From Planctomycetia bacterium (GTDB lineage Bacteria > Planctomycetota > Planctomycetia > JALXBF01 > JBGPMX01), in contig DAIOWH010000009.1 in the NCBI GenBank assembly GCA_036758585.1, positions 1,573 through 65,572 on the forward strand: a DNA stretch of 64,000 bases, read 5' to 3'. Below, piece by piece: positions 13,594 through 32,050 of this stretch. Position numbers and translations under genes: made by a program. Every line of letters begins with the position of its first letter. Positions within the stretch are counted from its first letter, which is position 1. The notes beneath the pieces are model-generated. The model saw nothing but the letters and a program-made list of their open reading frames with translations. It did no database searches and was not told the DNA's origin.

Positions 13594-16500
13594 CTACCGC
13601 CCGATCTCGATGGCCAGCGGTTCAGTCCAGTGTTTTTGCTCGGCGGTGTAATAGAGGTACGTGCGCGAGGCGGGGCCGGTGTAGCGACCGGGCCATTCGG
13701 CGACGAGGTCGAGCTTGATCGCGACTTTCCTAGCCGGCGCGAGCGAGCGCCAGTAGCAGATCACCTCACGGGCGCGGGTTTCGTAGTAGTCGATCGTGCC
13801 GGCCTTCTTCAGTTCTTCGAGCTGGTCGGCCCGCGGCTGCAGGCCGGCGGGAAGGCCGAGGATGGCGATCGTCATTGGCTGACCACGGTCGGTTGTGTTC
13901 ACGAGTTCGGCGTGGAGCGCGACGGTGTCGCCGGCGCGGACCGCGCCGCCGGCGAGCTTGGTCGTCAGCCGGACTGGGCAGTCGGCGTGGTTGGCCGGCG
14001 TCGCAACGCGGTAGCGCACGTCGAGCGCGTAAGGCATCGCGTTGTCGCCGGTGAGCCGGATCGTTAGGTGGTTGTCGCCCGGCCGGAGCTTCGTCGCCAG
14101 GTCGGCGATGGAAATCTCGCGGTCGTGGCCGGCACCAAACGGCGCGTGGCCGATCGCTTCGCCGTCGCGGCTGACGATCAGTTCGCCGCCGCTGACTGTC
14201 TTGCGGTTCGCCTTTGAGTGTTCGACGAGCGCCTTGAGCGCGAGGATCGTCGCCTGAGTGGAACCCCAGCCGCCGCCCTGGCGATGCGCGACGATCCACT
14301 CGACGGCCTTGTCGGCGTTTTGGTGGTAGGTCGGGACCTTGAGGAACGCCAGCGCCGCCAGCGCCGTCGTTTCGGCCGTGAGCGATATTCCGCCCGACCG
14401 CGTGATCGAGCCTTCCTTGCCGTCGAGCCGCCCGTCGCCGGCCTGCGATTCGGCGAGCTTGTCGAGTAGCTCCTTCGCGGCCGCGTGCTGCCCGCCGTTC
14501 ACCGCGCTGGCCGCGGCGAGTGCGACCAGGTACGGGTCGTCCGACTTTCTGGCGAGTTCAATCACGTGCGCGATCTCCGTCGCGATGTTCTGTTCGCCCG
14601 ACTCGGTGAGCGCCCAGACGATGTAGGCGTCGGTGATGTGTGGCGGTGCGCCGCCGAAGCTATCGAGCGCCCGCGGGTTTCGCTGAAAACCGCCCTTGCC
14701 GTCGCGACGCGCCAGCAACCACGCGGCCGTCCGCTCGATCATCTGCCGATCGACCGGGTAGACTTCGGCCATGTCGCGGAACTCCATCAATCCGTACGCC
14801 GTGAGCGCCTCGTGGCCGGGATCGCCGCCGAACCATTCGTAGCCGCGCTCCTTGCACTCGTAGGCGGTCAGCTTGGCGTAGCCGTTTTTCAGAAGCTCGC
14901 GGGCGCGGCGCGTGATCTCGGGGTCCGCGACCTTGTGCTCCTGCATGTACTGCATCGTCAGCACGTTCGGATAGTTCGACGTCGACGCCTGCTCGAAGCA
15001 GCCGTACGGCTCGCGCAGGATGCTCTCGACTCCCTTCTGCAAGTCGGCAAGCGTGGACGGGAACGCGGCGAGCGAGATTTCGAGCGATCCGGGCACGATC
15101 GTGTCGGGCAGCGTCAACGTCACGCGATGGTCGCCTTCGAGCCGGCCAGCGTGCGATTGAAGCGCAGGGAAACCGGCCGGGACGACCGCGATCGTCTGCT
15201 TCTTTGCGTCGGCCAGTCGCCCGGCGGCGCCGCGGACCTCGATGTCGGCGAAGCCGCTGCGGCCGAGGACGTTCAGCGTGAAGTGCTCGCGCGATCTCGT
15301 GCCTGGTCCGAGCACGAGCGTCCGCTTCGCGTCGCCTTCGATGGCCATTTGGTCGCCGGCCGAAAGGGTGAGCGTCACCGGCAGTTCGCCGCGCGTGTCG
15401 TTGCCGATCGCGACTGGCAACTCGATGCGATCGCCGGCGTTGACCTCGAGCGGCAGCTTCGGCTCGATGGTGAACGGGATGCGCGAGACGACCTCGCCCG
15501 TGCCAACGCCGATTCGGCCCGCGCCGTTGTGCGCGTCGGCGAGCACGCGAAACGTCGTGACCGAGTCGGACAGGTCGAACCGCGCCGTCGCCCGGCCGTC
15601 GGCGTCGGTGATGAGCATCGGGTGCCAGAACACGGTCTCGGCAAAGTCGCTGCGCACGCCAGGCTCGCCGCCGCTGTGTTTGTGCGCGTACTCGCGCACG
15701 GTGAAGCGGTAGCGCTCCAGACCTAGTTGCAACCGCGCGGCCGCCCCGAAAAGATTCGCCTCGTCACCAAGCTGCTTCGCGCGGCCGAGTTCACGGCGCA
15801 GCTCGCCAAGTTGACGCAGGCCGAGTTTTTCCTGCTCAAGCGCCTCCAGCATGGCCTGCCGCTTGCCGGCCCGCGCGTCTAACTTGTCGAACCGGTTGGC
15901 GAACTTGGCCAGGAACGCATCCTCGGCTGGTTCACCCCGCAGTTTTCCCTTGAACTCTTTGTCCCAAAAGAAATTGTGGTCGGCACCTTTAGCCCAGAGC
16001 ATATTCAGCCCCGCCAGAGCTTCGTCCTTGACGCCGTCACGCCCTTCCGCGACCAACCTGACCGCTTCGGCCAATCGCTGGTGCACCTTGGCCTGCTCGG
16101 CGGCCAGTTGGTCGTTGGCCATCTTGGCCAACTCGGGTGCGGCTTTCGGACTTGCGGCCGCCGCCGGCTCCGGCTCCCTCCGGACCAAGAATCTCTCGAA
16201 CGCGGCCGATGCGAACTGGAGTGGCTGGTGCGGCTGCGGGTTCATCCAAAACAGGCCAACCAGCAGGCACGCGGTCGCGGCGGCGAGAGTCGGGACGCAG
16301 AATCGAACGGTCGGGGCCAGACGCAGCATCGTGAGCAGTACGGCGGCAACCGCAACGACGAGGCCGCCCGCTAAACTCATGGCGCCGAGCCGCTCGAGCG
16401 CCTGCTGCTGCTTGGCGGAGTGCGCGGCGAGGTGAGCTTGGTATTCACTTTGAGCGTCAGTCAGGTTGTCGAACATCGTGGGAGGCGTGATGTGGCCATC

Positions 16501-18768
16501 GAGCGACGCGAGCCGAGTCAGTTCCGCGCCGCCGGTCGCCGCGAACTGCGGGTCGCTGATCTGCGCCTCGACGAAACGTCGCCAACCCTGCGTGCCCAAG
16601 AGCAGGTCAAGCGCGGCCGGGGCCTTGGCCTCGGCCGACAGATAGAAGTCGGCCTTCTCCAGATCTTCGGGCTTCTCGACCTCGGTCGTGAGGTAGAAGT
16701 GAGTCGTCATCTGCGGTGTGTCGTCGTCGGCCATCTTCAGGAGTGCGTCGTCCACGACGGCGACGCCGAGCACGGCCGGAGTCGGCTCGCCGCGCTCGTT
16801 GGTCACCATGAGCGACACCTGCACCGGGTCGCCGGGCGAATACGACTCGCTCTCGCCGGCGACGCGCACGTCGAGCCGCCGGTCGGGGCGGCGATAGACG
16901 AGCCGCTCGGCGACCGGCCGCGGCGGCTGCGCGCTGTAGTCGAACACCGTGAGACGCACGACGCCCGCGGCCTCGGCGGCGATCGGCACGGCCAGCCGGT
17001 TCGAGCCGAGCCGCGTGACGAGCGCCTGCTGGCCGACCTGCACGCCGCGGCAGTACGCCGATGCGACCAGCGGCAGGTCCGACCTACCGGCGCGAACGTC
17101 GAGTTCGATCGAGCGACCCGGCTCGAATACGCCGGCGCCCGTGGCCAGCACCACGTGCCGCTCGGTGTTCACGTCGGGCAGACGCGGCTGGCTGATCACG
17201 TCGGCCGGCTTGGCGATCTTCAGCGAATAGGTCTCGCCCCGCTTCGGCGCGAAGGCGAACGAACCCATGCCCTTGTGCGCGGTCTCGACCTTGGCGACCT
17301 CGCGGCCCTGGCCATCGACGACGTAGCCCTCGATGTGGACCGGCTCGCCGCCGGGGTTACGCGCGACGAAGTAGACGCGGTTGTCCAAGTCGGCGACCAA
17401 GTCGCCGCCTTCGGGGAAGAAGCGGACGTCGACCTTGCCGAGGTTGATGCGAATTGTTTTGGCGATCGTCTCAGCCGCGCCGCCATCGTCCACGACGACG
17501 GCAAGCTGGGCGTCGCCCTTGTCGATCGCGGCGGGCAGTTGGAATTCAATCTGAAACGCGCCCGCCGGCCCGGCCTGCGCGGTTGCCTGGTGGACGTTTT
17601 GGCCGTCGACAGTCGCGGTGATGCGCAGTGTCGCGCCCGCCACAGCGCCGCCTTCGGCCCGGGTCGCCGCGAAGTCGGCCACGACCCGATCGCCCGGCGC
17701 GTAGCTGTCGCGAGTGAACTCGAGTTCCTTCTTGAGCCGCGGCAGTCGGTAGCGTCGGATGAAGAACGGCCGCTGCTCTTCGGGGAACGCGTCGTCGATC
17801 GCCCGCGCGACCAGCGTGAACCGGCCGCCGGCGATGTTCGGCGGGAGCTGAAACGACCCGCTGCCGACGCCGCGGTCCGTGACGCCCTCGAGTTCCGAAC
17901 CGGCCACGACGGCGCCCGATGGGTCGCGAATCTCGAAGTGAATCGGCGTCTCTTGCGGCGTGTCCAGTCCGAATCGACCCAGCGTCAGGGAGCGGTAGAA
18001 CACAGTCTCGCCCGGCTGATAGAGCGGCTTGTCGAGAGCAAGCTGAGTCACGAACCGTCGCTCGTCGACCGCGAGCTGCGAGTGCATGCGCGTCAGCTTG
18101 CCGTGGTGTACGGCGAGCACCTCGAACCGCGATCCGTTGGGCAGCGACACGTCGGGCGGCACGGCGGCGATCACCTGGCCGCTGGCATCGGTGTGTTGCG
18201 TCTTTTCGAGCAGCGTTGTGCCGTCCGGCGCGTGAACAGCGTACTGGACGTCGACATCGAGCGGCTCGCCGGTCACGGAAGTCGTCTGTACGGTGAACTG
18301 GTTGGTCAGGCCCGCGGCGACCTTGGCCGGCCCGGTCACGACTAGTCGCAGATGTTCGTCCGCAATGTCGGCGACCTGCGCGCGGTGCCGTGCGTAGCCG
18401 CTCGCGGTGATGACTACTAGTACGGCCGCGGCCAGGCCCACGACCCACTTGAGACCGCTCGCCCACACTCGCCCTCGCGACGCACTCGCTGGCAGTTCTG
18501 ACGACAGGCCACTCGCGCGGGCGGCGCTCAAGCCGGGTTCGTCGACGACCGCGCCGCCGCCATCCGGCCGAGCCAATTGCAGGCGAGGCACGTGCAATCG
18601 CGCCGCCGCCTCGAACAGCTTGGCCCGGTGCTGAGCCGCGGCATACGCGCGGGCTACATCCGGATCGCTTTCGATGCGTCGCCGCAGCGCCGCGGCCTCG
18701 TCGTCGCCCAAGAGGTCGTAGGTCAGCTCCAGCAGTTGCTGGTGCAGTTCGTCGTTGAGTTGGTTCAT
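13594..18768 (-). CDS. Anti-sigma-factor N-terminal domain + TM + MG-domain array + alpha-2-macroglobulin thioester domain (1724 aa); cognate of the adjacent ECF sigma factor
   Basis: N-terminus has an RskA/ChrR-type anti-sigma-like segment (LLELTYDLLGDDEAAALRRRIESDPDVARAY) followed by a TM helix. A long series of MG-like beta domains follows, then a mid-protein hydrophobic hairpin. The C-terminal A2M region carries the thioester motif PYGCFEQ. GGGAGA SD precedes ATG 18768. It lies 45 nt downstream of the ECF sigma gene. Confidence 0.7.
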   Translation of the reverse strand: MNQLNDELHQQLLELTYDLLGDDEAAALRRRIESDPDVARAYAAAQHRAKLFEAAARLHVPRLQLARPDGGGAVVDEPGLSAARASGLSSELPASASRGRVWASGLKWVVGLAAAVLVVITASGYARHRAQVADIADEHLRLVVTGPAKVAAGLTNQFTVQTTSVTGEPLDVDVQYAVHAPDGTTLLEKTQHTDASGQVIAAVPPDVSLPNGSRFEVLAVHHGKLTRMHSQLAVDERRFVTQLALDKPLYQPGETVFYRSLTLGRFGLDTPQETPIHFEIRDPSGAVVAGSELEGVTDRGVGSGSFQLPPNIAGGRFTLVARAIDDAFPEEQRPFFIRRYRLPRLKKELEFTRDSYAPGDRVVADFAATRAEGGAVAGATLRITATVDGQNVHQATAQAGPAGAFQIEFQLPAAIDKGDAQLAVVVDDGGAAETIAKTIRINLGKVDVRFFPEGGDLVADLDNRVYFVARNPGGEPVHIEGYVVDGQGREVAKVETAHKGMGSFAFAPKRGETYSLKIAKPADVISQPRLPDVNTERHVVLATGAGVFEPGRSIELDVRAGRSDLPLVASAYCRGVQVGQQALVTRLGSNRLAVPIAAEAAGVVRLTVFDYSAQPPRPVAERLVYRRPDRRLDVRVAGESESYSPGDPVQVSLMVTNERGEPTPAVLGVAVVDDALLKMADDDTPQMTTHFYLTTEVEKPEDLEKADFYLSAEAKAPAALDLLLGTQGWRRFVEAQISDPQFAATGGAELTRLASLDGHITPPTMFDNLTDAQSEYQAHLAAHSAKQQQALERLGAMSLAGGLVVAVAAVLLTMLRLAPTVRFCVPTLAAATACLLVGLFWMNPQPHQPLQFASAAFERFLVRREPEPAAAASPKAAPELAKMANDQLAAEQAKVHQRLAEAVRLVAEGRDGVKDEALAGLNMLWAKGADHNFFWDKEFKGKLRGEPAEDAFLAKFANRFDKLDARAGKRQAMLEALEQEKLGLRQLGELRRELGRAKQLGDEANLFGAAARLQLGLERYRFTVREYAHKHSGGEPGVRSDFAETVFWHPMLITDADGRATARFDLSDSVTTFRVLADAHNGAGRIGVGTGEVVSRIPFTIEPKLPLEVNAGDRIELPVAIGNDTRGELPVTLTLSAGDQMAIEGDAKRTLVLGPGTRSREHFTLNVLGRSGFADIEVRGAAGRLADAKKQTIAVVPAGFPALQSHAGRLEGDHRVTLTLPDTIVPGSLEISLAAFPSTLADLQKGVESILREPYGCFEQASTSNYPNVLTMQYMQEHKVADPEITRRARELLKNGYAKLTAYECKERGYEWFGGDPGHEALTAYGLMEFRDMAEVYPVDRQMIERTAAWLLARRDGKGGFQRNPRALDSFGGAPPHITDAYIVWALTESGEQNIATEIAHVIELARKSDDPYLVALAAASAVNGGQHAAAKELLDKLAESQAGDGRLDGKEGSITRSGGISLTAETTALAALAFLKVPTYHQNADKAVEWIVAHRQGGGWGSTQATILALKALVEHSKANRKTVSGGELIVSRDGEAIGHAPFGAGHDREISIADLATKLRPGDNHLTIRLTGDNAMPYALDVRYRVATPANHADCPVRLTTKLAGGAVRAGDTVALHAELVNTTDRGQPMTIAILGLPAGLQPRADQLEELKKAGTIDYYETRAREVICYWRSLAPARKVAIKLDLVAEWPGRYTGPASRTYLYYTAEQKHWTEPLAIEIGR

Positions 18769-29153: not shown

Positions 29154-30014
29154 TCAGCGCTTTGGTCCGACTAATGGTTCGAGGAACTTGAACATCGCTT
29201 TGGTCGCCGGGTCGTCGGGCAGTCCGAGGTCGGCGTTGATCTTGGTGTGAGTTGTTTCGCTCGCCGCAAACACGGTGACCGGGACGTCGGCGGATTGAAG
29301 CGTGGCGCCGAGGCGTCGCGCCTGCGCGGTGACGTCGGGGTGTCCGGCGACGTGGAGAATGAGGAACGGCGGGATTCCCTTCCCCCTTGCTATGTGCGTG
29401 ACGGCGGAAAAATCAATGTGCTTCTTGGGGTCGTTACCAAACTTGACGCGGTGGCCGAATTCCGGGAGTGGCAGCCCGTGCACTGTTTGACGAATCTCGG
29501 CCGTCGTGATCATGGCCGGTATGTCGTAGGTGTCGCCGTCGACGGGCACACAGCCCTTGAGGACGTTGAACGGCACGCCCTCCGCTTTCAAGTAGCGATC
29601 GTCGATACACAGCAGGGCGGCGAGCTGGGCGCCGGCGGAATGCCCCATGACGAATATCCGCCTCGGATCACCGCCGTGCCCGGCGATGTTCTTGTGGACC
29701 CAGCCGAGCGACTTGGCGACGTCGCGGATCAGGTCGCCCATTTCCACATGAGGCAGCAGGCGGTAGTTGGTCGAAACGAAGACGAACCCGTGTTCAGTAA
29801 ACACTCGCGGCTTGATCTGAACGCTGGTCTTGTCTCCCGTCTGCCAGCCGCCGCCATGAATCCAGAACACGACGGGAAGGTTCCTCGCTTCGTCGGGCGC
29901 ATAGATGTCGAGGACTTGGCGCTCATGCGCGGGCTCGGCGTACGGGATGTTGGATTTGGGATTCTGCGCCTGAGCGACGGACACGAGCAACAGCAAGGCG
30001 ATCGCGGGTTTCAT
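29154..30014 (-). CDS. Secreted alpha/beta-hydrolase fold-3 esterase/lipase
   Basis: Signal peptide [16 protein letters not shown] from the internal ATG at about 30014, with AAGGA SD. HGGGW oxyanion motif. GHSAG nucleophile elbow. Confidence 0.75.
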
Positions 30015-30330
30015 GGCTGTCCTTTTCGGGAAACAAGGTACTTGCATCACGTTCCGTTCTATTGGGTCGCAAGCGACTCGATCTTGCGTTGCCACGGTTG
30101 CATCTCTTTCGGCGATATGTGGATGGTACCGGGCTTGCGTTTCGGGCTGGCCGTTTTATCTTTTCCGAGTGAGCAAGCGGCCGGCAACGGTCCACCGATC
30201 AGCCGGAGACCTGGTGCGGATTCCGACCAGGCGGCCCACAATCCTCCGAAACACCGACGACGCGAACGCCGGCGGCAGGTTATCTTCCGAAGTAGCGAGG
30301 GTCAACCACTGCTGCGTCTGGTGTGCGGCA

Positions 30331-30458
30331 AAATTCTATGGCGACACTAACTCGTTTAACGGCAAGCCGAAGGCGACGGCACACTGGGGTGGGGTCGGTG
30401 CGGTTCGGTTTCGCGCCGTCGCCTTCGGCTTGCCGTTAAACGAGTTGCCATAGAATGT
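30331..30458. repeat. Palindromic repeat element, variant copy 3 (about 43-bp arms ttctatggc...aactcgtttaacggcaagccgaaggcgacgg with a 6-nt indel; 36-nt loop)
   Basis: Read directly. Shares the tcgtttaac terminus and the tandem G/C hexamer organisation with copies 1 and 2, but with a different inner stem. It sits in a 515-bp non-coding stretch upstream of the SLOG-DarT-like gene. Confidence 0.7.
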
Positions 30459-30565
30459 TGCCAGACACTGCGTCTGTTGGACGTGCAATCGTACCGTTAC
30501 GGGAAAGGCGGAGTACTGATCGCCGCTGATTGGCGCTGGTCTGCAGTGCCACGGGTAGCCTGACC

Positions 30566-32050
30566 ATGACCCAAGCGAATGCTGTTGCGGACTGGCTCGC
30601 GCTGGCCGGAGTGAGTGCCGCGTCGGTGGCCGCGCAGCTTGCCGGCGGTGCGAAGTGGTTGAGCGGTGACGACGACGGGGGCCCGCCGCGATCGGTCGAT
30701 ACGAACCCACCGAGGTCGCCCGGTCATCTGGCTGACCGGCTGGAAGCCCGCCCCACGGCAGGTCGCCGCTGGCTGTGGTGTTCGCAGTCGTTGCCGATCG
30801 GTCGACGAGTGGCAGTAATGACTTCGCGCATCGCTCGGCACGTCGATCCGTACGGTGCGTGGATGAGCGGCCTACGTGAGTCGCTGCGGCGTGTGCGAGA
30901 CGAACGGGCGGTCGTAGTGACGGCGGTGGGCTGTGCCGGGCACGAGATTGTGCTGCGCGGTGCGATGCGGCAGGCGTCACCGGTCGTCCGGTTGTACTGC
31001 TGCGACGCCAATGTCGCTGCCGCGCGAACGTGGGCAAGACGGTGGTGGGCCAGTCTGGACCAACCCATCGCGGCGGGCGTCGCCGATGTTTGGATACTGC
31101 CGTCATCGAAGGCACACTCGCCCGATGAGCCGACGCAGGCCGCATTCGGTTCGGTTCCGCAGCGCGACCGGGCCGCGGTTGCGTGGGCCGACGAGGTGAT
31201 GGTGCTTGCGTTGCGCAGCGGCGGCAATCTACACGCGCTGCTGCGGCATCGCCTGACCGCCGCCCTGGGCCCGGTGGTACTGGTCGATCTTCCCGGTCTG
31301 CAATCGAAGCGTGCTCGCGACGAGCTTGTGCAACTCGGCGCCTCGCTCTGGTCTGTGCGTGGCGGGGGTGTCGACCGTGTGGAACCTGCTAAGTTCGACG
31401 GCGCCCCGCCGACCGCTTCGCCGGCGCCGATTGTGCCGGCGCCGGCGCCGACCGGCTGGCCGTATTTGACGCACTGCACGCGCGCCCGCGAGGGGCCGTG
31501 GCCGGACCAGTCGCCCGACGATTATCTCGACGGCTTGTTCGACGCGAGCGGCGACGTCGATCATTCGGCGTTGGCGACGCTCGTGCGCATTGCAACGCAG
31601 CGGCGCCTGATCGCGTCGAGTCGTACGATCCGCGGCCGGTTTGGCGTGGTGAGCTTCACAGCGGCGCCGCTTGGCGAGTTGGCGAGGCTGCGGGTGTTTC
31701 GTGCACACAGAAGCCGGTGGGACTTTGAGCCGTATGGCCTATGTGTACGCCGCGAGTGGCTGGCCCAGCGCGGTGCGCGGCCGGTGCGCTACGGCAGCGA
31801 CGACGACTGGCGATCGCTGCCCGATGCCGATCGCCCGTTCTTCCAACTCGTCCGCACCGGCGAGGGCGCGGCGCGGGGGTCGCCGATTGACTGGAGGGTC
31901 GAGGCCGAGTGGCGACACGTCGGCGACTTGGACCTGTCGGACCTGCCGGGCGGCGACGGGCTGATGTTCGCGCCGAATGAGGCGGAGGCCGCGTGCATTG
32001 CCCGAATCTCACGGTGGCCTGTGTGCGTCGCGCCGGCTGCCGAACGGTGA
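30566..32050 (+). CDS. DprA/Smf-like (SLOG Rossmann) domain protein fused to a C-terminal DarT/DUF4433-like ADP-ribosyltransferase-like domain
   Basis: The N-terminal half aligns by eye with the DprA Rossmann domain (VVTAVGCAGHEIVLRGAM ~ VVSGLARGIDAAAHRGAL; VMVLALRSGGNLHALLRH ~ VLVVEAALRSGSLITARLA). The C-terminal 200 aa carry DarT-like motifs in H...Y...E order (PYLTHCT ~ PIYHITH; FEPYG; DWRVEAEWRHVG ~ FEAEFLVHG catalytic-Glu motif). The DarT assignment is inferred from remembered motifs. The start could be TTG 30530 or ATG 30566. Confidence 0.45.
   Translation: MTQANAVADWLALAGVSAASVAAQLAGGAKWLSGDDDGGPPRSVDTNPPRSPGHLADRLEARPTAGRRWLWCSQSLPIGRRVAVMTSRIARHVDPYGAWMSGLRESLRRVRDERAVVVTAVGCAGHEIVLRGAMRQASPVVRLYCCDANVAAARTWARRWWASLDQPIAAGVADVWILPSSKAHSPDEPTQAAFGSVPQRDRAAVAWADEVMVLALRSGGNLHALLRHRLTAALGPVVLVDLPGLQSKRARDELVQLGASLWSVRGGGVDRVEPAKFDGAPPTASPAPIVPAPAPTGWPYLTHCTRAREGPWPDQSPDDYLDGLFDASGDVDHSALATLVRIATQRRLIASSRTIRGRFGVVSFTAAPLGELARLRVFRAHRSRWDFEPYGLCVRREWLAQRGARPVRYGSDDDWRSLPDADRPFFQLVRTGEGAARGSPIDWRVEAEWRHVGDLDLSDLPGGDGLMFAPNEAEAACIARISRWPVCVAPAAER

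Follow-up and report, generated by a model that had tools for sequence, protein, structure and literature searches.

A Planctomycetota protein family joining a DprA-type Rossmann domain to an ADP-ribosyltransferase-fold domain

The gene, its product and its family

The DNA analyzed in this study, hereafter the window, is a stretch of 64,000 nucleotides from a Planctomycetia bacterium (contig DAIOWH010000009.1 of assembly GCA_036758585.1), and it harbors on its forward strand a gene (30566..32050, +) that encodes a fusion of a DprA-like domain with an ADP-ribosyltransferase-like (ART-like) domain. The gene begins with ATG and encodes 494 aa, in agreement with the product of about 495 aa proposed in a first-pass annotation that was made from the DNA letters, and the deposited public product, also of 494 aa from ATG 30566, is 100% identical to it. 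The start coordinate of 30331 given in that annotation falls within an upstream hairpin, outside the gene. The earliest possible start in the list of open reading frames (ORFs) is a TTG at 30530, which gives an ORF of 506 aa (30530..32050, +), and residue numbers are counted from this TTG throughout. The sequence motifs quoted in the first-pass annotation lie at ORF residues 311 (PYLTHCT), 399 (FEPYG) and 454 (DWRVEAEWRHVG). The G+C content of the gene (0.66, versus 0.62-0.65 in the flanks) is ordinary for this high-GC window.

Four segments were distinguished in the product. A variable N-terminal extension (residues 13-89; 30566..30796, +), delimited by an alignment of 44 sequences and by lower values of the predicted local distance difference test (pLDDT), is followed by a DprA-type Rossmann domain of the SLOG superfamily (N-domain; residues 90-285; 30797..31384, +), a low-complexity interdomain linker rich in Pro and Ala (residues 286-305; 31385..31444, +) and an ADP-ribosyltransferase-fold domain (C-domain; residues 306-506; 31445..32047, +), which is AbiGi-like by sequence at sub-threshold scores and closest to DarT by structure. 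In the full-length model the pLDDT dips at about residues 281-290, in the linker zone, and across the family the median length of the interval between the domains (residues 276-311) is 39 aa.

A word-indexed search returned 127 relatives, all annotated as "hypothetical" and devoid of any Pfam domain; WP_010586011.1 of Schlesneria paludicola is a named member. An exhaustive profile search yielded 2,450 representatives of clusters at 50% identity at E<=1e-3, with 1,409 at E<=1e-30, and all 150 matches listed spanned both domains. At least 389 loci in reference genomes, taken as one genome per species, encode a relative. All titled records belong to Planctomycetota, including Schlesneria, Planctomicrobium, Pirellulaceae, Blastopirellula, "Anammoximicrobium" and others. 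Of 249 members, 80 are short and lack the N-terminal extension, and 135 are long, their extensions measuring 60 aa or more. Two paralogues were encountered in one metagenome-assembled genome of Pirellulaceae (assembly JAYGDG01; L059 and L071), and one locus was returned from each of the other genomes sampled. The gene is thus a member of a large unnamed family found only in Planctomycetota, in which a DprA-type domain and an ART domain occur in fixed fusion. Among the publications searched, none describes a DprA-ART or DprA-DarT fusion. What is new is the ART family, its fixed new domain partner and its non-mobile, partner-less setting; both folds, and the joining of SLOG with NAD+-utilizing domains, were already known.

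Folds and conserved signatures of the two domains

An AlphaFold2 model of the full-length protein was built from the 44-sequence family alignment and reached a pLDDT of 85.3 and a predicted template modelling score of 0.85. The best match of its N-terminal half was the DprA-like antitoxin ShosA (8zva; structural score 13.4, 213 residues aligned), followed by the DprA of Streptococcus pneumoniae (11.3), a molybdenum cofactor (MoCo) carrier (10.3) and the DprA proteins of Helicobacter pylori (10.1) and R. palustris (9.3). LOG proteins (7.5-8.7), TRPM2 (8.3), YpsA (7.8) and the SLOG domain of ThsA (6.4) scored lower. The C-terminal half of the same model independently matched DarT structures (7.0-7.4) and Tpt1 (6.4). 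Moreover, a model of the C-domain (residues 298-506), with a pLDDT of 92.7, gave the DarT proteins of Thermus (7.8) and Mycobacterium tuberculosis (7.5) as its top matches, and then E. coli DarT1 (7.3), Thermosipho DarTG (7.3) and yeast Tpt1 (6.5), with SopF (5.3) and DUF952 (5.2) further down; OspC3, Rhs toxins, pertussis toxin, scabin, PARPs and others ranked lower. About 50 of the 60 structural matches listed for this model were ADP-ribosyltransferases. A search of viral folds in BFVD gave weak matches only, to uncharacterized phage proteins with template-modelling scores of 0.33-0.40. In these models the N-domain has the extended Rossmann fold of the DprA type, and the C-domain has the split beta-sheet core of the ART superfamily with conserved residues at the positions of motifs I, II and III, DarT being its nearest structural neighbor. 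Because of these rankings, with DprA and ShosA on one side and some 50 of 60 ADP-ribosyltransferases on the other, the predicted folds of both halves can be regarded as secure, and the structural matches confirm the earlier proposal of a DprA-type N-terminal domain and an ART-type C-terminal domain.

No match at E<=10 was obtained in Pfam, PADLOC or NCBIfam for the whole protein or for either half, and DprA/Smf (PF02481) of Pfam and NCBIfam matched neither the whole protein nor its N-terminal half. The alignment of the N-domain by hhalign with E. coli Smf alone was not significant, yet it was collinear across the whole Rossmann domain. Against a DprA profile of five sequences (Smf, 3maj, 3uqz, ShosA and 4ljk), hhalign aligned 170 collinear columns with an E-value of 0.0012 and a probability of 19%. 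The motifs brought together were RVAVMTSR with LAVVGSR, GCAGHEI with LARGIDG, PQRDR with PRRNR, LRSGG with LRSGS, and LVDLPG...LGA with FALPGP...QGA.

The single-stranded DNA (ssDNA) signature of DprA consists of the motifs "G-S/T/A-R" (Arg52) and "F/L/Y-x-x-R-N/D" (Arg143/Asn144), which have been contrasted with the LOG motif PGGxGTxxE (Wang et al., PMC3950713). The counterpart of the first motif, which holds Arg52 in the DprA of H. pylori, is Ser99-Arg100 (30824..30829, +), aligned by hhalign to the GSR of Smf/DprA; in the family it takes the form [S/M/T]-S-R, with S99 in 233 and R100 in 223 of the 235 members that have a residue there. The second is represented by Pro210-x-Arg212-Asp213-Arg214 (31157..31171, +), aligned to PRRNR of Smf, and its family form is [I/V/L/T]-P-x-R-D (of 249 members, P210 in 224, R212 in 167, D213 in 249 and R214 in 194). 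Furthermore, Arg229-x-x-Gly232 (31214..31225, +) aligned to the "RSGS" loop of DprA and not to the LOG motif, with R229 in 243 and G232 in 239 of the 249 members; P-G-G-x-G-T-x-x-E of the LOG/lysine decarboxylase-like clade (PF03641) is absent from the family. The N-domain is basic, with an isoelectric point of 10.6 here and a family median of 9.0, versus a median of 6.3 for the C-domain. The protein differs from DprA/Smf in that the DML1/winged-helix C-terminal domain is missing and the ART domain stands in its place. ShosA, for its part, works with a separate phosphoribosyltransferase toxin, whereas in the present family the enzyme is fused to the DprA-like domain; the ShosA antitoxin requires both ssDNA and RecA binding (PMC12961424). 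ThsA of the Thoeris system (SIR2-SLOG) shares the general architecture of a SLOG-superfamily Rossmann domain joined to a domain that utilizes NAD+.

Residue conservation was counted over 249 family members, many of which are at or below 50% identity to one another. In the C-domain, H315, T317, W324, Y421 and R462 were invariant (249 of 249); R318, D398, W455, E458 and E460 were each conserved in 248, Q439 in 247, W397 in 246 and H393 in 245; and R368 was kept in 241, R353 and R396 in 240 each, and T314 in 163 members. At the end of strand beta-1, His315-x-Thr317-Arg318 (31472..31483, +) corresponds to ART motif I, as judged by conservation and by the hhalign alignment to DarT1. Ser375-Phe376-Thr377 (31652..31660, +), where the second core strand passes into a helix, is by its position the candidate for motif II; residue 375 is Ser in 179 and Cys in 69 members, and residue 377 is Thr in 226 and Ser in 23. 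A near-invariant insert specific to the family, His393-x-x-Arg396-Trp-Asp398-Phe399 (31706..31726, +; F399 in 241 of 249), precedes beta-3 and is a candidate contact to the substrate or to nicotinamide adenine dinucleotide (NAD+), and R353 and R368 are the candidate Arg residues of an NAD loop. At the start of beta-5, which begins at residue 460 in the predicted model, Glu458-x-Glu460-Trp461-Arg462 (31901..31915, +) corresponds to motif III ([Q/E]-x-E) by conservation and by the model. The order of the motifs along the modeled fold is the canonical ART order I, II, III, with motif II of the Ser type, and Glu460 is the predicted catalytic glutamate by its position rather than by superposition.

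The first-pass annotation had read an H...Y...E series in this domain. Its His and Glu were upheld by the conservation of H315 and of E458/E460, but its Tyr, that of FEPYG, was not. Because this residue is Phe in 43 members (Tyr in 202 of 249) and sits before beta-3, it is probably not the tyrosine of an H-Y-E triad, a role for which it finds no support; the invariant Tyr is Y421, and Ser/Cys-x-Thr on the preceding strand appears to be the better candidate for motif II. Since His315, Glu-x-Glu and a dozen further polar residues are invariant among members of 50% identity or less, it is unlikely, judging from this conservation, that the C-domain is catalytically inert.

The relation of the C-domain to DarT was examined with profiles and with authentic DarT sequences. 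The first-pass annotation had made a significant match to the DUF4433 profile the test of its DarT assignment, and none was obtained: PF14487 (DarT/DUF4433; gathering score 22.5 bits) gave no match at E<=10 to the whole protein, to its C-terminal half or to 35 C-domains from the family, and the DarT models of PADLOC gave none to the protein. As a positive control, four genuine plasmid DarTs scored 53-67 bits on PF14487. Searches of PDB sequences with phmmer and with profiles returned only noise (7tmv_A at E 0.44; HisF at E>1), and no DarT chain was matched there by profile. For comparison, eight full DarT domains were recovered from plasmids by tblastn. The N-terminal motif of DarT was confirmed on PDB chains, and the invariant residues of the eight sequences reproduced the published catalytic set of DarT1, which is R52, D54, S63, M71/F72, N104 and E152 (PMC11543638). 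When the C-domain was aligned by hhalign with this eight-sequence DarT1 alignment, only the beta-1 motif was recovered (15 columns, E 0.074, probability 0.8%), with YLTHCTR set against YLVHFTR; a forced global alignment of the C-domain with DarT was discarded as meaningless.

In DarT the catalytic Glu is E160 in DarT2 and E152 in DarT1, the latter within the motif Q150-A-E152, the Arg of the NAD loop is R51/R52 (with Asp54 in DarT1), and the base-coordinating residue of the ADP-ribosylating turn-turn (ARTT) loop is H119/N104 (PMC11543638). Motif I of DarT reads T-H-x-D-N (H-F-T-R/x in DarT1), whereas the family has T-H followed by the invariant T317-R318 in place of D-N. Ser375-x-Thr377 is comparable to S63 of DarT1 and to the S-T-S of R-S-E transferases, and the family carries in addition the HxxRWDFEP insert. 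Sequence and profile similarity to DarT was not significant, identity in structural alignments was 12-18%, and the family gene, unlike the mobile DarT, is chromosomal, confined to one phylum, fused to a DprA-like domain and devoid of a DarG or NADAR partner. Because no profile matched, hhalign recovered only beta-1 and real DarTs score 53-67 bits, the C-domain falls outside the DarT family by sequence, while its fold and its motif I are shared with DarT.

AbiGi (PF10899) was the only recurrent Pfam family, with matches in 3 of 44 full-length members and in 11 of 35 isolated C-domains (best E 2.4e-4). The matches listed individually scored 11.7-12.7 bits, below the cutoff of 22.4, and consisted of two collinear stretches over FEPYG/beta-3 and over DW-x-x-E-x-EWR, the stretch of Glu458-x-Glu460 corresponding to AbiGi profile positions 125-142. 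AbiGi has been counted among the ART-like families and related to DUF2971 and DarT (2025 survey, PMC12522546), and AbiG is still mechanistically unexplained (2026 review, PMC13064643). AbiGi is a stand-alone protein of the lactococcal AbiG abortive-infection system, whereas the present family is a fusion without an AbiGii-like partner; no AbiGi/AbiGii two-gene arrangement appeared as a conserved neighbor in 84 homologous loci or as a PADLOC AbiG match in the window. The C-domain is hence described as a separate, AbiGi-proximal ART family. In addition, phrog_13416, a PHROG family of unknown function, matched 32 of the 35 C-domains (best E 7.5e-5), that of the window at 31421-32047; therefore, related domains exist in phage genomes. 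Tpt1/KptA differs from the family in lacking the Glu-x-Glu motif and in possessing an N-terminal winged-helix domain that the family does not have.

Among the plasmid DarTs, some carry long N-terminal extensions, with total lengths of 296-846 aa: L209 (Acinetobacter soli pAS645-2), L213 (Rhizobium leguminosarum p2), L212 and L214 (Deinococcus sp. QL22). No significant Pfam domain was found in the three extensions scanned. Several plasmid DarT genes, extended or not, directly precede a gene for a "hypothetical protein" of about 225-245 aa, and this product is possibly the cognate antitoxin.

Surroundings of the gene and the upstream repeat

The gene lies divergently from an esterase gene (29154..30095, -; Pfam esterase domains), and by Pfam the window flanks encode Wzy_C, GT4, prolyl-tRNA synthetase (proS), esterase, Calx-beta and spermine-synthase/TPR proteins. 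No Macro or NADAR domain was found by Pfam among ten flanking genes (22.6-42.0 kb). The whole window was scanned with PADLOC as 63 ORFs, each about 190 aa long or longer, and no DarG, DarT, AbiG or Thoeris component was found among them. Neighbors within 5 kb of the 84 homologous loci were compared by all-against-all clustering of ORFs, in which no family occurred in more than 11 of 84 loci, and this recurrence reflected synteny within a clade only. Three distant homologues had unrelated neighbors, and in the two closest relatives (64-70% identity) the gene is preceded, at a distance of 40-300 bp, by one for a cob(I)alamin adenosyltransferase. Thus, a conserved antitoxin or partner gene was rejected by the neighbor clustering, and a defense-island context by PADLOC. 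Because no neighbor is conserved, the flanks are ordinary and PADLOC detected no defense partner, the gene is a stand-alone chromosomal gene outside defense islands and two-gene modules. The first-pass annotation was right that no DarG-like macrodomain or NADAR gene is nearby, as the Pfam flanks, the PADLOC window and the 84 loci all indicate, but its picture of a toxin without an antitoxin did not hold, since the family is chromosomal and phylum-wide, with ordinary and variable contexts, and is not a mobile module.

Further observations were made on the neighborhood. In the PADLOC scan, the PrimPol model was matched by two ORFs (best E 3.9e-7), and the candidate families PDC-M71B and PDC-M16B by one ORF each. 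A 1724-aa ORF lies at 13594-18768 (-), about 12 kb upstream of the gene. Downstream, a 1016-aa Calx-beta ORF has its earliest start at GTG 31993 and there overlaps the end of the gene by 58 nt (31993-32050); public calls differ in the start of this Calx-beta gene, which overlaps in L001 and lies 195 nt downstream in L002.

Between the divergent esterase gene and the fusion gene lies an intergenic region (30096..30565, unstranded) that measures 470 bp from the ORF list, and not the 515 bp of leader reported earlier; in the closest orthologues, 40-300 bp stand in place of this long leader. It contains a long hairpin or palindrome (30320..30469, by DNA folding), whose perfect arms of 32 nt (left, 30349..30380; right, 30415..30446; unstranded) are 100% complementary in the repeat search and, if a 6-nt bulge is bridged, comprise about 42 paired bases each. 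The palindrome noted in the first-pass annotation is therefore real; none of 100 shuffles matched it, and folded as DNA it reaches -64.7 kcal/mol (z = -13.2). It is, however, one copy of a dispersed intergenic repeat, composed of the arm core TCGTTTAACGGCAAGCCGAAGGCGAC, a loop of 9-51 nt and the reverse complement. Exact copies of a 25-nt piece of the arm number at least 120 in metagenomes from diverse sources, with several per assembly, and one assembly has it on six contigs. Among 129 repeat copies, 72 form palindromes whose loops span 9-51 nt (mode 17-18). Intergenic positions account for 118 copies, which favor neither gene starts (57) nor stops (64), and 15 copies are at contig ends. In 1.05 Mb around 84 other family loci, apart from the same organism, the arm turned up at just two positions, both remote and unrelated, and an Rfam scan of the leader returned only a chance match to a small RNA (E 0.6), the repeat not being in Rfam. 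A role as a gene-specific regulatory element was rejected, because the palindrome is a dispersed repeat that is absent upstream of other members and of the closest orthologues. It behaves like a repeat of the repetitive extragenic palindromic or miniature inverted-repeat transposable element type, unrelated to the gene family, and the architecture of leader and palindrome that had been called unusual is incidental.

The repeat tends to interrupt public assemblies, and the Logan contig that carries the gene, L001, starts within the right arm (at about window position 30440). On the AT-rich contigs Ga0316208/Ga0316209 (L089-L092, L107, L111, L114, L129, L134 and L142), the 25-nt arm is non-palindromic and is embedded within a longer conserved unit ...GACTGCGTCAACAGGTTTGCTTTATTTTGAAGGTGCCGAACCGCGAATAAACGTGAATTTTCGCGAATTAATTTTCAG...; therefore, the arm sequence itself, and not the hairpin alone, seems to be a conserved module. 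The outer ends of the perfect arms (30352-30358 and 30437-30443) read GTTTAAC ... GTTAAAC, which we take to fit the R''/R' core consensus of integron attC sites, RYYYAAC / GTTRRRY. The perfect pairing without extrahelical bases and the dispersed, not arrayed, distribution argue against attC identity.

Proposed function and its alternatives

The reading that we prefer, in which we place about as much belief as doubt, is that the protein is a chromosomally encoded transferase that is self-contained, depends on NAD+ and is directed to single-stranded nucleic acid. In this mechanism the DprA-like domain would bind single-stranded nucleic acid and present it to the C-domain, which would be an active transferase that consumes NAD+ and moves ADP-ribose onto it. 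The substrate would be ssDNA, with single-stranded RNA or a nucleic-acid end being less likely. The gene lies on the chromosome, usually as one copy, occurs throughout the phylum and has no reversing enzyme beside it; on these grounds the protein would be internally regulated and would serve DNA metabolism or a stress response instead of forming the toxic half of a toxin-antitoxin pair, and its ADP-ribosylated product would be tolerable or reversed by an enzyme encoded elsewhere. DprA proteins load RecA. DarT lesions, for their part, are repaired by RecF-dependent recombination and nucleotide excision repair (PMC7003065). Because of this repair route, the loading of RecA by DprA and the need of ShosA for ssDNA and RecA, it may be speculated that the DprA-like domain could couple modification to RecA loading.

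Several observations weigh against this proposal. At accepted thresholds, sequence models place neither domain in DprA or DarT, and homology to DarT rests on the fold plus one short motif. The Gly of the first DprA motif is lost and Arg212 is kept in 67% of members; because of these changes ssDNA binding is not assured, and its retention by the N-domain is plausible from the remaining conserved residues. SLOG domains of other proteins have nucleotides, not DNA, as their ligands, and known ART activities include the modification of proteins and of small molecules and plain hydrolysis of NAD+. In addition, the genome beyond the 64 kb viewed here could encode a hydrolase that reverses the modification.

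The alternatives draw on the same observations. That DarT structures are the nearest solved folds, that the nearest sequence family, AbiGi, comes from an abortive-infection system, that the best structural match of the N-domain is a DprA-like antitoxin dependent on ssDNA and RecA binding, and that a phage family matches 32 of 35 C-domains would all suit a DarT-type toxin or anti-phage effector that modifies an ssDNA base and blocks replication, restrained by a distant antitoxin or by the DprA-like domain as a fused antitoxin in the manner of ShosA/ShosT. Such a role is nevertheless unlikely, given that Pfam and PADLOC gave no DarT match while real DarTs score 53-67 bits, that no DarG, NADAR or AbiGii neighbor occurs in the window or in the 84 related loci, and that the genes around it are unremarkable and vary from clade to clade, synteny being confined to single clades. 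Unlike mobile defense genes, moreover, the family is both phylum-wide and phylum-restricted, and the GC content of the gene matches its surroundings. The protein might also be a ligand-gated effector whose SLOG-type N-domain senses ADP-ribose, a cyclic ADP-ribose isomer or NAD+, as in ThsA and TRPM2, and thereby switches the ART domain, in which case the target need not be a nucleic acid. We judge this decidedly unlikely, as structures of the DprA family score higher (13.4 and 11.3, versus 6.4 for the SLOG domain of ThsA), the conserved residues align with the ssDNA-pocket motifs of DprA, the LOG motif is absent, and no signal-producing partner such as a TIR protein or a cyclase is conserved nearby in the 84 loci.

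An enzyme of the Tpt1/KptA kind, recruited by the DprA-like domain to single-stranded ends and acting there on nucleic-acid phosphates (removal of a 2'-phosphate, or 5'/3' capping with ADP-ribose), appears very unlikely: the Glu-x-Glu at beta-5 is typical of transferases with a catalytic Glu, which the Tpt1 clade (H-H-h, PMC12522546) lacks, and no RNA-repair or ligase neighbors are conserved in the 84 loci. A similarly slim chance is given to an ART domain that targets a protein or small molecule or is an NADase, with the DprA-like domain serving DNA localization or dimerization, or to a protein that is inert and structural. Most characterized ARTs do modify proteins, the substrate is not readable from the fold, and the similarity to nucleic-acid-modifying ARTs is not significant; yet the nearest folds, DarT and Tpt1, act on nucleic acid, scabin also appears lower in the list of structural matches, and the invariant His, Glu-x-Glu and dozen further polar residues speak against an inert protein.

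In conclusion, whatever its function, this family is absent from Pfam, NCBIfam and PADLOC and merits a definition of its own, which would also link AbiGi, itself poorly understood, more securely with the ART superfamily. To our knowledge, bacterial DNA ADP-ribosylation is known only from toxins paired with antitoxins (DarTG) or from secreted toxins. A tentative and on balance doubtful extension of the preferred reading is that ssDNA ADP-ribosylation could be an endogenous, regulated step in the replication, recombination or DNA uptake of Planctomycetota, in which the DprA-like domain would capture ssDNA, and possibly RecA; it would then be a housekeeping system with no adjacent eraser, and not an act of toxicity or defense. 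If the protein is active on nucleic acid, it would provide a natural example of the targeting of an ART in cis by a DprA module, and the ADP-ribosylation of DNA or RNA would no longer be confined to conflict systems but would also belong to the normal physiology of Planctomycetota.

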